Assembly: GCA_036785375.1 (NCBI GenBank)
Contig: JAWMAR010000265.1
Location: forward strand, 372,001-436,000
DNA: 64,000 bases
Origin: Leucoraja ocellata
Taxonomy: Eukaryota
Direction of reading: 5' to 3'
Shown here: positions 5,346 through 50,540 of the stretch, in pieces
Numbering within the stretch: the stretch's first letter is position 1
Layout of the letters: every line of letters starts with the position of its first letter
Translations under genes and position numbers: made by a program
Notes under the pieces: generated by a model
The model's input: the letters and a program-made list of their open reading frames with translations, nothing else
The model's database searches: none
What the model was told of the DNA's origin: nothing

Positions 5346-5853
5346 ATAGAGTCATAGAGTGATACAGTGTGGAAACAGGCCCTTCGGCCCAACTTGCCCA
5401 CACCAGGCAACAAATCCCAGCTACACTAGTCCCACCTGCCTGCATTTGGTCCATATCCCTCCAAACCCGTCCTATCCATGTACTGGTCTAACTATTTCTT
5501 AAATGTTGGGATAGTCCCTGCCTCAACTACCTCCTCTGGCAGCTTGTTCCATACACCCACCACCCTTTGTGTGGAATAAGTTACCCATTAAACCTATGCC
5601 CTCTTGTCCTCAATTTGCCTACTCTGGGCGGGAGATTCTGTGTATCTATCCGATCCATTCCTCTCATGAATTTATACACCTCTATAAGATCACCCCTCAG
5701 CTTCCTGTTCTCCAAGGAATAGAGTCCCAGCCTGCTCAACCTCCCTCTATAGCTCAGACCCTCTAGACCTGGCAACATCTTCATAACTCTTCTCTGTTCC
5801 CTTTCCAGCTTGATATCTTCTTTCCTATAACATGGTGCCAGAACTGAACACAT
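5346..5853 (-). mobile_element. CR1 LINE 3' fragment with (ctctatga) tail
   Basis: ORF 5581..5853 LSRLGLYSLENRKLRGDLIEVYK...RTRGH. Confidence 0.9.
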
Positions 5854-6021
5854 TCCTCATCCTACGATGAAGTTACGTTCCGATAAACTCATCGTTAATC
5901 GAAAATTTCGCAAGTCGAAATCGTATTTAATACAATGCGATCACATGACCAGAAGTGGCGTGCGGCTCGCTGCCATTGCCGATCGTAAAGTCGAAATATC
6001 GTAAGTCGGGGAGCACCTGTA
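5853..6021. mobile_element. Tc1/mariner (Tigger-like) MITE remnant
   Basis: CpG-rich with repeated (t)cgtaagtcg motifs; ends ...gagcacctg|ta. Confidence 0.55.
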
Positions 6022-15301: not shown

Positions 15302-15454
<153 letters not shown>

Positions 15455-16794
15455 CTAAAGTAAACAAAGAGGGGAAAAGAGCATTCCAACTTTTGTAAAA
15501 TAAAACCAAGGAGCAAATGAACAGCAATGTGACAAGAAACATGCTGAAATCAAATCCCTTTCGTCTTTAACTCTTTATATCTCAGTTTGACAAGCGATTC
15601 CTGCTACTAACCTACAAATTTGTCAATTATCTTTTTGTAACTTATCAAGCATTTTGTTTTTAATTACAGAAAAATGAGATTTTCAATGGGCATACTAAGA
15701 AACACTGGCAATTATAGTTCCGTTTTTAAAGTATTTTAAAATTTATCTACATTGTTCAGAAATTATACATTTTAAACATTAGAAAACCCAATGCCATTAA
15801 TATACATATTAGTTCTCCTTTTGAGCTGGCTGTAGGCTATGTACGTTGAACAGCAGCGTGAATAGCAAAACTGTACACCAATATCTGCCATTTGAACTGT
15901 CTATGATAACAAAGCTCTCAAAGCTATTTTAATAATAGCAATGTCAGAACCTTCTTTGCCTGCTGCCGGTCTAAATTGCAATATCTGTACAAATTACAGT
16001 ATCTTTGAAAATGCCAGTACAATTAGGTCGGGTCTGTTGTGTCCCTGATCAGCTCTTTGGGAAGGAGGGGGTGGCAGTTGGGGTAGTTAGGAATGATTGT
16101 GCAGTCCACTGAAATGACTGAACAGACCATCTTCTACATATAGTGTGAAAGGCAAGCAAATCAACTTGCAGTGCTAGTGCCACATATGTTACGGTCAAAC
16201 AAAGCCTAATGCAAATAAGCTTAAAAATCTCACTCTCTCTTCAAAACTAGAATAAGCAAACGATAAAGTTTGTTTGTGGTCTGCCAAGTTAACTGACATT
16301 TTACAAGAATGCCATACAGTTCAATGCAAATGCAATAGGTTCAAATAATATGATAATTAAACCACCTATTGTTAATTATTGCTTTTTGGCTGAATTTGGT
16401 ATAAAAAAAATATTCTCGCTGAATTGTTGATTTACAGCCACCAAATGTATTTACTGCTGAAATGTCTATAAATCTTACATATCGCCCAAGATCGCCCATA
16501 TGGGCTCAGTGGGAACATGATAAAATAGTAATTATTTGTCAACACACATTTTATTATTTCCATTAAATTTGATGTAATTGCTAATGTCCAATTTTTTACA
16601 AGATAATGAAAAATCTAAGCAGGAGACTTGATCATGAATGCTATTCTAATGCTACAATTAATAACTTGGGACAAATATGATCAGACTATTAAGATGCTCT
16701 ATAATATTTTCTACTTTTGTTTCTATGTATTGGGTTTGCTTTGAGAAAAGGATCCTGTAAAAAGAGAAGCATAAGCGGATCTTGCATCTGACCT

Positions 16795-16934: not shown

Positions 16935-17691
16935 TCCCGAGCTGCAGTGATGAGACCAAGCTGAGATATTAAATCATCTTTCATTTCTGCATTTTCCCCC
17001 CAGTAAACCAGAGGACAAAACAATCAGAAAGTGTTACGATAATGAGTAATATATTGAACTGGAAATAAATGGTATTGAACATTTTAAAGTCTATATTTCA
17101 ATCATTTTGGATTGTTTCTCTACATCTAATTTAAAATTTACTCCACATTTGCAGTAATCGTATTCAGTTAAAAACCCATGAAATAACTAATAATTAAAAA
17201 ACAAAATACGCAGCATAATTTGGAAATTGGACGTGCTATTAGTCTTTTGCAGACATCCAGGTCTCTGATGGTCTCAGAATAATCTGCATTCCAAATCCAA
17301 ATTAATTCAGTTCAGTAAATCTGGTACTCAAATGTTTAATATGCTGATGAGCACAGCAAAAATGCTTGTAATGTAGATATGGTTTTGCCACATCTATTCT
17401 TCCCCACTACAAACATTTCCACTGATTATGCCAAATGACTTGTGGCTAACTGCTGTTTCATTCAGTTTTAAAATGAAAATTTGAAGTGCTTTTGCGATGT
17501 ACTGCCTGTCTTTATCTGTTGAACTACTCCCTTTCTGAGAGAAAAATACAGGGGGGAAAGGATACTGAGAGCACCCAATTTTGCTTCTTGTAAGTGCAAG
17601 ATAATGGATTTGTTTAGACAGGGATATGAATGAATTCTTTATCTCAGTAAATAAACTGTGTTTCTGTTCTGACAGGATAATATTCACTTAC

Positions 17692-17746
17692 TTTCCTTTA
17701 GTTCCAGCTGAGTGACCACAGCCCCGACTCCTGTGGCAGCTTCAGT
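17692..17746 (-). other. FOXP2: Candidate 55-nt frameshifting (poison) cassette exon in FOXP2 intron 13
   Basis: cacacag|ACTGAAGCT...AAAGGAAA|gtaagt; open in the exon 13 frame (TEAATGVGAVVTQLELKE), then PTC at 15438-15440. Confidence 0.65.
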
Positions 17747-18163
17747 CTGTGTGATGAGGTATGATGTGTACAAAAGGCACAGACCAAGACAAAACCTACA
17801 GCCTCCATTTGTTGCACAAGGCAAACAGCCATTTTTCAAACTAATTAGCCAATAATATGTGAAAGTAAAAAGTAATACGAAGCTACTAACAAAGGTGTTG
17901 ATGATTGAGTGCTCACACTGTAATTAGTGTGTCAGGCACTCACATCTCCACCAAGGCAAACCTATTAATTGCACTAAATTAGAAAACGATATCAGAGGCA
18001 AAATTATTCTTTCCACTTGTCATTTTGAGAAAGGGAATTCATTCTATTCAACAGCCAATTTGAAAAAGAGGGAAGTCTGATACTAATCTGTTTGTGTCAA
18101 GTAAATAAATGTCTTCAGTGCTATCTCCCAATACTGTGCCATGCTTCTGTAAAGTGGAGGTTA

Positions 18164-18295
<132 letters not shown>

Positions 18296-18392: not shown

Positions 18393-18503
<111 letters not shown>

Positions 18504-23252: not shown

Positions 23253-24329
23253 TGTTCATGTGCTGATAGCTGTTAAGGGTGTAGTGATGAACCAACAGAG
23301 CTCATTTTGCCTTGGTAATAAATTCATACTATTAATATTTATCAAATGTGTGGGCTGTCTCAACTGAGCCACTGCATATGAGGACATAAATCAGTACTAT
23401 CATATCAATTATGGAGCTCTTTTTGTGCAGTATATAAATTTTAGAGTTCTTTTTGTATACTGGTCCCCTTTTCAACCATTCAAAGGCTAACAGTGCCATG
23501 TAATACATTGTAGAGAGCACAAGTGTCCAGTGGGAAGAGGAAAAGACTGGTTTCAATTCGACTTGCTCATCTAAGGATTCCCTATTAATTACCCATCATC
23601 AAATGCAATTAGACATTCTTTCATGTGTGGTTTATGTAATGTAATACTTGAGTTACATTATTCAAGTTCAGTTTTAGAATATAAGCTGAAGATCCTTTAT
23701 TAGTGCAGATCTTACCACACTGTTGGACTTTTACAAATTTACTAATTGAATAATTTATTTATAAAGAATGAGCTGCAGATTCCTGATGGATTTACTCAAT
23801 AAGAATTTTATCTTTAAACTTTATGTACTGGTGAATGCAATATGGAATAAGAAGTGATCAGAGTATTATTCATTTAAAATAAATGAATAAAGCAGTGTAT
23901 TAAACCAAGTTGTCTTTCAACAACATTGCTCCTCCCCCATTTTAATTAAGCTGCAACAAAATTCTTAATACAAATTAGAAATTGGGGCTATTAATTTCCC
24001 AAGTAATTTGTCTGTCTGGGGATTCGAACTCACAACCAGAAGGTCACGAGTTGGATTTCCTAAGGTGTTCGTCACCTGAATACAATTTCCTTAGTCGAGG
24101 TGTTATCAGTTTTCAGTTGAGCTAAATGATGCTGTAGTGCAGAGAGCAATGTATGTGATATCAGTCAGAAGGGGGTCAGCACTGCCTAGTTGCATCTCCT
24201 GTTAGTCAATAACAAAGCACTACTTGTCATCGTCATGAGAAAGCTCTTGCTCTCGACTATCCCTATCCTCACATGCTCACGGACTTGTTAGCAACAAGCA
24301 TTCTCCAAGGGATAAGGGGAAAAGACATA

Positions 24330-24627
24330 TATGTGTGTGTGTGTGCGTGTACGTGTACGTGTGTGGGCGTGTGGGCCTGTGCATATGTGTGGGCCTGTGT
24401 GTGTGTGCGCGTGCGTGTGTGCACGTGTGTGTGTGTGCGTGTGTGGCCTGTGTGGGTGAGGGCCTGTGTGTGTGCGCCTGTGTGTGCGCATATGTGCGCA
24501 CGTGCGTGAGTGTGTGTGTGCGCATGTGTGCGTGTGTGCGCGTGCCGTGTGTGCGTGCGCGTGTGTGTGGGCCTGTGTGTGTGCGCTCGTGTGTGTGTGT
24601 GTGGGCCCGTGCGTGTGTGCGCGTGTA
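24330..24627. repeat. Imperfect (GT/GC)n microsatellite, about 300 bp
   Basis: Alternating purine-pyrimidine tract with recurring gtgggcct interruptions; source of four spurious ORFs. Confidence 0.95.
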
Positions 24628-25095
24628 TAAAACAGTTCAGTTTGGCAGAACAAGTGCAGTTTTGATTACAGGAATTGAAACAATATTATGTGTGTTTCTC
24701 CCCTAATTGTCCAACACAGACTTGCAGTGGAATGAGCGACCCTTCTCACCAAGCCAATTTTACCATATAGTGTTTAACTGATGCTGAACTTCTTTAGGCA
24801 AGGTTGGGAGTGGTGGAGGAGTTTAAATTGACACTTGAACATCTCTGAAAGTAACAAAGCATTTTCAAAGTTTAAAGATCAAAGAATCATGTTTTGCATC
24901 CAATCTAACTTATACTAAACTAACATACTAAAGGCACAAAATTCATCATGATGGTTTTAATTTTATTTCATTTATCAAGCAAGGTATTCACAACAAGAAC
25001 TTTCATTTTGACAGTTCATACCGGGTATGCTTTAAAATAAAATGCTTTAGATACTATTTCGGCAGGCAGTAAATTCTAGTACTTCACCTTTAAGT

Positions 25096-41394: not shown

Positions 41395-43340
41395 ATCACA
41401 CATTAACCACCACGCCATCTTTAAATTTGCAGATGAAACACCATTGTTGCCATTAAGAATGTTGCATGATGAGTCGGGGTACAGAAGAGAGATTGAGAAC
41501 ATGATGAACTGGTCCCAGAAACTACAAGCTCACTCTCTATGTGGGCAAAGAGCCGATTGTTACTGTAGGAAGGGAAGACCGAGGAAGCAATGAATCTGTC
41601 TTCATTGATGAGAAGATGACTACAGCTTTAAGTCCTGGGCTTGGCACATTTATGCAATGGCAAATAAAGCTGATTAAAGCCACTACATCCTTAGAGGTGT
41701 ATAATAGAGAGCATAGTATACAAACTTAAAGCACAAGGCATTGGGGGTTCAGTATTGATGTGGATAGAGAACTGGCTGGCAAACAAGAAGCAAAGAGTAG
41801 GAGTAAACGGGTCCTTTTCACAATGGCAGGCAGTGACTAGTGGGGTACTGCAAGGCTCAGTGCTGGGACCCCAGCTATTTACAATATATATTAATGATCT
41901 GGATGAGGGAATTGAAGGCAATATCTCCAAGTTTGCGGATGACACTAAGCTGGGGGGCAGTGTTAGCTGTGAGGAGGATGCTAGGAGACTGCAAGGTGAC
42001 TTGGATAGGCTGGGTGAGTGGGCAAATGTTTGGCAGATGCAGTATAATGTGGATAAATGTGAGGTTATCCATTTTGGTGGCAAAAAAGGGAAAGCAGACT
42101 ATTATCTAAATGGTGGCCGATTGGGAAAGGGGGAGATGCAGCGAGACCTGGGTGTCATGGTACACCAGTCATTGAAGGTAGGCATGCAGGTGCAGCAGGC
42201 AGTAAAGAAAGCGAATGGTATGTTAGCTTTCATTGCAAAAGGATTTGAGTATAGGAGCAGGGAGGTCTACTGCAGTTGTACAGGGTCTTGGTGAGACCAC
42301 ACCTGGAGTATTGCGTACAGTTTTGGTCTCCAAATCTGAGGAAGGACATTATTGCCATAGAGGGAGTGCAGAGACGGTTCACCAGACTGATTCCTGGGAT
42401 GTCAGGACTGTCTTATGAAGAAAGACTGGATAGACTTGGTTTATACTCTCTAGAATTTAGGAGATTGAGAGGGGATCTTATAGAAACTTACAAAATTCTT
42501 AAGGTGTTGGACAGGCTAGATGCAGGAAGATTGTTCCCGATGTTAGGGAAGTCCAGGACAAGGGGTCACAGCTTAAGGATAAGGGGGAAATCCTTTAAAA
42601 CCGAGATGAGAAGAACTTTTTTCACACAGAGAGTGGTGAATCTCTGGAACTCTCTGCCACAGAGGGTAGTTGAGGCCAGTTCAATGGCTATATTTAAGAG
42701 GGACTTAGAAGTGGCCCTTGTGGCTAAGGGGATCAGGGGGTATGGAGAGAAGGCAGGTATGGGATACTGAGTTGGATGATCAGCCATGATCATATTGAAT
42801 GGCGGTGCAGGCTCGAAGGGCCGAATGGCCTACTCCTGCACCTAACTTCTATGTTTCTATGTTTCTATATTGACTGGATGCATCATGGCCTGATTCTATA
42901 ACCTGAATACCCAGGAACAAAGGAGGTTTCAGAAAGTGATAAGCATTGCCCTATCGAGCACCAGTATTGACGTCCCCACCATTGAAGAGACCTACAGAAA
43001 GTACAGCTTCCAAAAGGCCATGAATATCATCAAAGACCCTCTCCACCCTGGCCATGCTCTCATCTCGCTGCTACCATTTGGAAGAAGGTACAGGAGCCTG
43101 AGAACCATGACCTATAGATTCAAGAACAGCATTGAACCACACTGCACAACCCTAACGACAACATTACCTCAGCAACGATCTACTGTGGACTTTAGTTTGC
43201 TTGCGCTATGTATTTCAGCTTTTCATTCTTCTGAGCTGGTTACCCGGTAAGTTATTGTATTATTTATTATGTTATTGCATTAATGTGCCTGGAAAGTTGC
43301 AGCAAGAAAGAATTTCATTCACCCCTTCCCAGTACAAATG
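41395..43340 (+). mobile_element. Decayed Rex1/Babar-like LINE, split by a younger CR1 at 41715-42868
   Basis: IFKFADET..YRREIENMMNW on the left, IIKDPLHPGHALISLLPFGRRYRSLRT on the right. Confidence 0.7.
41715..42868 (+). mobile_element. Young 5'-truncated CR1 LINE (RT domain, one frameshift near 42270)
   Basis: SGVLQGSVLGP, KFADDTKL, RPHLEYCVQFWSP; (tttctatg)n tail. Confidence 0.96.
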
Positions 43341-50004: not shown

Positions 50005-50540
50005 CCCTTTTCCTAATTTGAGGAAGGACATCCTTGTGATTGAGGCAGTGCAGCGTAGGTTCACAAGATTGATCCCTGGGATGGCGGGATTGTCATATGA
50101 GGAAAGATTGTAAAGACTAGGCTTGTATTCACTGGAGGTTAGAAGGATGAGGGGGAATCTTATAGAAACATATAAAATTATAAAAGGACTGGACAAGCAA
50201 GCTGCAGGAAATATGTTCCCAATGTTGGGCGAGTCCAGAACCAGGGACCACAGTCTTAGAATAAAGGGGCCATTTAAGACTGAGGTGAGAAAAAACCATT
50301 TCACCCAGAGAGTTGTGAATTTATGGAATTCCCTGCCACAGAGGGCAGTGGAGGCCAAGTCACTGAATGGATTTGAGAGAGAGTTAGATGGAGCTCTAGG
50401 GGCTAGTGGAATCAAGGGATATGGGGAGAAGGGTTATTGATAGGGGACAATCAGCCATGATCACAAGCAATGGTGGTGCTGGCTCGAAGGGCCGAATGGC
50501 CTCCTCCTGCACCTATTTTCTATGTTTCTATGTTTCTATG
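50005..50540 (+). mobile_element. CR1 LINE 3' fragment
   Basis: ORF 50123..50440 RRMRGNLIETYKI...FTQRVVNLWNSLP; (tttctatg)n tail. Confidence 0.92.

Follow-up and report, generated by a model that had tools for sequence, protein, structure and literature searches.

The closest described systems for the 55-nt stretch treated here are the conserved cryptic poison exons of human, which make up 73% of the 394 conserved intronic cryptic exons in the account of Margasyuk 2024 (PMC11632617), and exon 20N of SCN1A (PMC7790302). With both the candidate shares the form of a short frame-shifting cassette that lies in a conserved part of an intron, in a gene sensitive to dosage, and that brings in a stop over 50 nt ahead of a junction; null alleles of FOXP2 are believed to act via haploinsufficiency (PMC5126810). 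It differs from them in that it is lost in the teleost examined, has a donor-less paralogue in FOXP1 and is known here from sequence alone. The non-coding elements duplicated with FOXP1 and FOXP2 (PMC3595034, PMC2781166) resemble it in their collinear similarity between equivalent introns and in motifs of transcription-factor type; however, the candidate block contains an exon-shaped module, and by human coordinates none of the seven FOXP2 rows in the paralogous-element table of PMC3595034 is known to fall in this intron. The stretch is part of a real, deeply conserved element and is probably a new candidate poison exon, in a prominent gene that is sensitive to dosage, with an enhancer as a serious rival explanation.

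A further point of comparison is the FOXP1 exon of isoform B, which we take to be the one named 18b. Its alternative splicing takes place where the forkhead domain is split (Santos 2011, PMC3002244), as that of the candidate would, but, as described there, 18b is a downstream duplicate of a coding exon, whereas the candidate lies upstream, is unrelated in sequence and shifts the frame. At FOXP1 loci (L003:2086-2255, L006, L007) an alternative second forkhead exon lies about 460 nt downstream of the ordinary one; an exon duplicate of isoform B type was found at two FOXP1 loci only, with none in FOXP2 or FOXP4 of this genome, and the candidate falls outside that class. FOXP2.10+ (PMC5826274) and Drosophila FoxP-I3 (PMC6372147) are alike in that their products keep the dimerisation domains without DNA reading. 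According to these sources, FOXP2.10+ stops before the forkhead domain and FoxP-I3 arises by intron retention, whereas the candidate is a cassette with a downstream stop whose transcript is predicted to be degraded.

The window, that is, the whole 64-kb stretch of DNA that was analysed, contains a FOXP2 gene on the minus strand. By tblastn its exons match FOXP2 of Callorhinchus and of rodents, the nearest named FOXP2 proteins for the upstream forkhead exon are those of Callorhinchus (97%, among the best 120 of 3417 matches) and the best solved structure is human FOXP2, so that the gene identity given in the initial annotation stands and the animal is most likely a cartilaginous fish. The exons of importance here are the following:

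18405..18481, minus strand: FOXP2 coding exon of 77 nt, equivalent of human exon 12, equal in length to FOXP2 row chr7:114659356-114659432
18173..18274, minus strand: FOXP2 coding exon of 102 nt, the last codon of which is the K549 equivalent, within the forkhead domain (best match FOXP2 chain 2a07_F)
15333..15454, minus strand: FOXP2 coding exon of 122 nt, beginning at the N550 equivalent, with the recognition-helix contacts (tblastn; residue roles from PMC3002244)

The intron between the last two splits the recognition helix, with its junction between the equivalents of K549 and N550, a placement given by the 166 residues beyond the junction in full-length proteins; the main isoform of FOXP2 has 715 residues (PMC5126810), and the DNA-contact residues named in Santos 2011 are N550, R553, H554, S557 and W573 (PMC3002244). 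The FOXP2 locus is present twice on one contig (about 372-436 kb and 776-782 kb), inverted and 99.4% identical over 3 kb, and FOXP1 was found on two contigs of the same genome; therefore, both haplotypes have probably been retained in the assembly, true duplication being the alternative. The two FOXP2 copies differ at 17 positions over 2.9 kb, none of which lies inside 18301-17497, and this difference-free stretch may be taken as weak support for constraint.

Within this intron, the initial annotation had proposed an exon bounded by AG and GTAAGT, and its coordinates all check out on the minus strand:

17749..17795, minus strand: AG-free pyrimidine-rich zone of 47 nt ahead of the acceptor
17692..17746, minus strand: candidate 55-nt frame-shifting cassette exon (CAG before, GTAAGT after, 3n+1 length)
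17686..17691, minus strand: donor GTAAGT

Inclusion of the 55 nt gives 18 new codons, a frameshift and then a TAA at 15440-15438, 105 nt ahead of the next junction, exactly as had been claimed; from the position of this stop, more than 50 nt before the junction, the transcript is predicted to be an NMD substrate, in agreement with the earlier reading. That reading had overlooked a second GT 4 nt past the first donor (after 17688), which gives a 59-nt exon with a stop 73 nt before the junction. Each of the three candidate donors (exons of 55, 59 and 73 nt) yields a stop 73-132 nt before the junction, and read-through of the GTAAGT donor gives 20 codons and then TGA at 17686-17684. Three features that characterize poison exons were found, namely canonical AG and GT within the intron of a coding gene, a stop over 50 nt ahead of the junction and conservation in distant vertebrates. 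The candidate also forms the GC-richer island noticed at the outset, with a G+C content of 54.5% against 34.9% for the intron; its value is equalled or exceeded in 65 of 2470 intron windows of 55 nt, which fall in two clusters, the candidate's own and one near 16100. The run without AG before the acceptor, first put at about 50 nt, was measured at 47 nt. Pyrimidines make up 64% of the 50 nt preceding the acceptor and only 60% of the last 20 nt, compared with 70-90% over the last 20 nt at three neighbouring coding exons; therefore, the candidate acceptor is weak in comparison with those of its neighbours.

Judged as a pair of signals, the candidate is unexceptional. Over 45.7 kb of sense strand, with thresholds set post hoc so that the candidate just qualifies, one of seven exact GTAAGT donors was paired with a qualifying acceptor, against one of eight on the antisense strand; with looser donors the counts were 6/37 and 6/40, so that the splice signals by themselves are no stronger than in the antisense control. 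The folding of the RNA was not distinctive (z 0.8, with 161 of 200 shuffles folding equally well), and no Rfam family matched the candidate region. Twenty-four sequencing runs of related animals matched, 17 of them RNA or probable RNA, with shares of 0.06-0.12, close to what would be expected from the two coding exons by themselves. The real evidence is the conservation of the candidate, which goes far beyond chance, rather than its signals.

In mammals, the stretch came to light in a Pteropus alecto gene model, ELK13937.1 (P0037), which has a 20-residue insert (residues 313-332) directly behind the upstream forkhead exon and was the one protein with it among the best 120 of 3417 matches to that exon. 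This insert is identical at 18 of 20 positions to the translation of 17746-17687, without indel (E 1e-8), and it begins at the candidate's first codon, which implies that the bat genome retains the acceptor AG. Its last three residues span the GTAAGT donor of this fish and would fit a retained GAAA/GTAAG in the bat DNA. The insert is 60 nt long and in frame with the next exon, not 3n+1, and the gene finder thus used a splice site at 60 nt that is lacking in this window; the model is also without other FOXP2 exons and should be taken to reflect bat genomic DNA rather than expression. When unconstrained substitution was simulated at 90% base identity, 19% of the trials reached 18/20 residues, and at 85% only 3% did so; the match would imply roughly at least 90% base identity without indels. 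Since both bat differences alter the amino acid, no sign of protein-level constraint on the candidate is apparent.

Among 280 FoxP proteins examined, the insert was present in the bat model alone, and it is missing from a RefSeq model for P. alecto (P0080). A search focused on the insert ranked, among 815 matches, the bat record alone above ordinary FOXP2, and two cluster look-ups found no further insert among the members listed (20 clusters, at most 15 members each). With the junction region of the bat model as query, a HMMER scan over 1.84 billion representatives returned one match, an unrelated repeat protein, and a protein search with the candidate's own frame returned 16 candidates, none at E<=10; the latter was a weak search, which missed the bat record too. 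The truncated mammalian FOXP2 tail mentioned in the initial annotation found no counterpart in these 280 FoxP proteins; this is what one would expect were such transcripts catalogued as non-coding, but it does not confirm the tail. Two other models, from Gekko (P0009) and Callorhinchus (P0013), diverge right at the same junction into unrelated tails, which are probably annotation artefacts.

A pattern scan of metagenome contigs gave six loci, of which four have introns of 71-120 nt, one gives only 332 nt without a match, and one (L010) offers 1307 nt of intron behind an exon like that of named teleost FOXP2 proteins. At two foxp2-like loci of the set the intron measures 107 or 109 nt, and therefore the element is missing there. 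In L010, the conservation is distributed over these blocks:

17819..18025, minus strand: upstream conserved non-coding block (164/228 by blastn, E 3e-27; 163/207 window bases, 79%, identical in global alignment)
17647..17691, minus strand: donor-side conserved block, ending in the second forkhead-type motif (17653-17647), retained by L010 and FOXP1 in shuffle comparisons
17282..17325, minus strand: another conserved non-coding block, more distal in the intron (37/44 identical, E 3e-8)

The best-kept part in the teleost is the upstream block, not the exon. The region 17640-17746 scored 53 against L010, which was reached by none of 2000 shuffles, and the exon body alone was 58% identical, a score reached by 537 of 2000 shuffles and thus not significant. 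The acceptor AG is lost together with the exon body, and both flanks remain. A GTGAG donor is present, and an ungapped alignment pairs its GT with the second GT here, not with the first. Two other AGs would give exons of 102 or 95 nt that both stop early, as do most pseudo-exons. The flanking blocks were retained in every long intron seen. No single species was seen with both exon and flanks kept, the exon being present in the bat model and the flanks in the teleost. The conservation from cartilaginous fishes to mammals supposed in the initial annotation thus survives in part: the bat, with 18/20 residues and the same first codon, speaks for it, and the teleost, without acceptor and exon body, against it, so that conservation appears to hold for two lineages (this fish and the bat) and not for all vertebrates. 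Likewise, of the orthologue of 3n+1 length asked for there, the acceptor is implied in the bat, but the model gives 60 nt in frame. The case for conservation is made up of a single bat model, a single contig from a teleost and a single paralogue.

The paralogue lies in the equivalent FOXP1 intron of the same genome, where a collinear element is found in both FOXP1 copies (L016:5073-5200, G000:C27; L018). A DNA search of the genome with the candidate element returned the two FOXP2 copies only, and the FOXP1 element required a targeted comparison. The two introns have in common:

17817..17848, minus strand: core shared by FOXP2 and FOXP1 introns (27/32 positions match in each FOXP1 copy, E 2e-4)

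From this core, the similarity extends through the exon and the donor side: the score of 17640-17815 was reached by none of 1000 shuffles and that of 17640-17700 (35) by two of 1000, and the score of the exon alone was reached by 207 of 1000. The FOXP1 element has an AG behind a 44-nt AG-free zone with 62% pyrimidines, and a second AG, 12 nt further, aligns with the FOXP2 candidate acceptor. An in-frame stop follows after 16 codons (range 16-20), and then an AATAAA and a U/G-rich run; the AATAAA aligns with a variant, ACTAAA, in FOXP2 both here and in the teleost. No donor with at least six U1 matches lies within 400 nt of the FOXP1 element, which may possibly be a forkhead-truncating last exon of FOXP1. 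Two TRTTTRY motifs (17827-17821 and 17653-17647) and a TAAT are common to the FOXP2, teleost and FOXP1 sequences; we take the former to be of forkhead type and the latter of homeobox type, and the TAAT within the core is also a branch-point-like CTAAT. Non-coding similarity is thereby retained in both orthologue and paralogue, as in a dCNE. The equivalent intron of FOXP4 (17 kb) holds no trace of the element, and two short matches in the FOXP4 region were rejected as chance, being outside that intron. The module is therefore older than the split of FOXP1 and FOXP2, and the candidate sits in a larger, older block shared with FOXP1, with forkhead and homeobox motifs, that the initial annotation had overlooked.

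Our preferred reading, to which we would give somewhat less than an even chance, is that the 55-nt stretch is a weakly spliced conserved FOXP2 poison exon inside an older non-coding module shared with FOXP1. The weak acceptor and the strong donor would set a low, regulated rate of inclusion, the inclusion transcript would be destroyed by NMD and the FOXP2 dose would be lowered; any escaping protein would keep the zinc finger and the leucine zipper and lose all five DNA-contact residues. The flanking blocks would have a second, probably DNA-level role, and because of it they would survive where the exon is lost. The joint loss of acceptor and body in the teleost, together with the near-invariance between this fish and the bat, fits constraint as an exon, and the whole pattern fits two overlapping functions, DNA-level flanks and an exon body constrained as an exon; the scarcity in protein databases (1/280) fits a transcript that yields no protein. 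Against the poison exon stand its only mammalian record, an in-frame 60-nt gene model that lacks other exons, the signals that match the antisense control, the FOXP1 counterpart without a donor, and the motifs common to all three sequences, which are of forkhead and homeobox type. The published record does not favour it either, as it is missing from the lists of NMD events examined and Santos 2011 found the forkhead region of FoxP2 free of alternative splicing (PMC3002244). The main rival explanation is that the block 18025-17647 is a developmental enhancer duplicated with FOXP1 and FOXP2, its splice letters being incidental or noise by which the bat gene finder was misled. That the paralogue has no donor, that two TRTTTRY and one TAAT are kept in all three sequences and that exon-like pairs arise at the antisense rate all speak for it; moreover, 95 conserved non-coding elements, 7 of them duplicated, are tabulated for the FOXP2 region (PMC2781166 Table 1), and paralogous FOXP1/FOXP2 elements act as enhancers (PMC3595034); of the seven FOXP2 rows given there three were reporter-positive and three negative. 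An enhancer does not readily account for an exon body near-identical from fish to bat yet gone in the teleost along with the acceptor, nor for the AG-free pyrimidine zone and AG retained in FOXP1, and the common 7-mer motifs are short, U-rich and equally possible as RNA signals. We regard the enhancer alone as a doubtful but serious explanation.

The FOXP1 element suggests another outcome of the same acceptor, namely a last exon that is used alternatively and polyadenylated within the intron. The product would be a stable FOXP2 that is truncated in the forkhead domain, dimerises and does not read DNA, much as FOXP2.10+. Isoforms without a forkhead domain occur in human, finch and fly (PMC5826274, PMC6372147), the read-through would supply 20 codons and the stop at 17686-17684, and both FOXP1 copies have acceptor, 16 codons, stop, AATAAA and U/G-rich run in order and no donor. 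At the aligned place the hexamer is the ACTAAA variant, here and in the teleost, but it lies ahead of the stop, only variant hexamers are found near the FOXP2 stop, and AATAAA occurs 7-8 times per 5.4 kb in the FOXP1 intron. ACTAAA is a weak polyadenylation signal, and a perfect GTAAGT would suppress cleavage by the established U1 effect, which counts against a last exon. A coding terminal exon should also appear in protein databases, where none of the 280 FoxP proteins had it, and we consider this explanation unlikely. About equally unlikely is the most far-reaching reading, an ancestral off-switch predating the FOXP1/FOXP2 duplication, whose acceptor would cut just before the DNA-reading residues and would survive in FOXP2 as a poison cassette and in FOXP1 as a last exon with polyadenylation. 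Through the flanking forkhead sites FoxP proteins could tune the splicing of their own transcripts; the whole would correspond in vertebrates to fly FoxP-I3, and splice-switching directed at it would be a means to raise the FOXP2 dose. A strong donor paired with a weak acceptor would also suit a decoy exon, the sites of which bind U1 and U2AF without being joined and slow the removal of the intron (a detained or retained intron), in parallel with fly FoxP-I3, which keeps intron 6 and so truncates the forkhead domain (PMC6372147); intron 6 of fly FoxP would be the equivalent of the candidate's intron. A decoy would not require precise conservation of the exon body as far as the bat, and we hold it to be quite improbable. 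That the bat record (P0037 / ELK13937.1) is right, and that the exon in mammals is a 60-nt coding exon that adds 20 residues to the recognition helix, seems very unlikely to us: it is found in one of 280 proteins and not in P0080, no 60-nt donor is present in this window and the insert would fall between K549 and N550.

If the poison exon is real, FOXP2 dose would become directly accessible through it: deep-intronic variants could be sought there in cases of speech disorder without an explanation, and antisense skipping could be aimed at it, nothing of this kind being in the FOXP2 list of Lim 2020; if the block is only an enhancer, it would still be an apparently unlisted element duplicated in FOXP1 and FOXP2, of modest interest. 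None of the seven FOXP2 NMD events listed in Lim 2020 lies in this intron, the last being a 77-nt exon two upstream of it. The supplements of PMC13078869, PMC8091538, PMC11632617 and PMC11188260 have no FOXP2 row under that gene name, and the tables may use other identifiers; PMC11188260 does list a 170-nt Foxp1 NMD cassette. FOXP2 is absent from the main text of a bioRxiv NMD resource. No title or abstract among the literature matches examined describes the exon, and it may already be listed in GENCODE, the RefSeq non-coding models or VastDB.

Elsewhere in the window, a long TG/CA-rich simple repeat occupies 24240-24700 in an upstream FOXP2 intron. Broken reading frames were seen at 41695-42770, with similar fragments near 5580-5860 and 50110-50440; they resemble what we take to be the ends of LINE-type reverse transcriptases.
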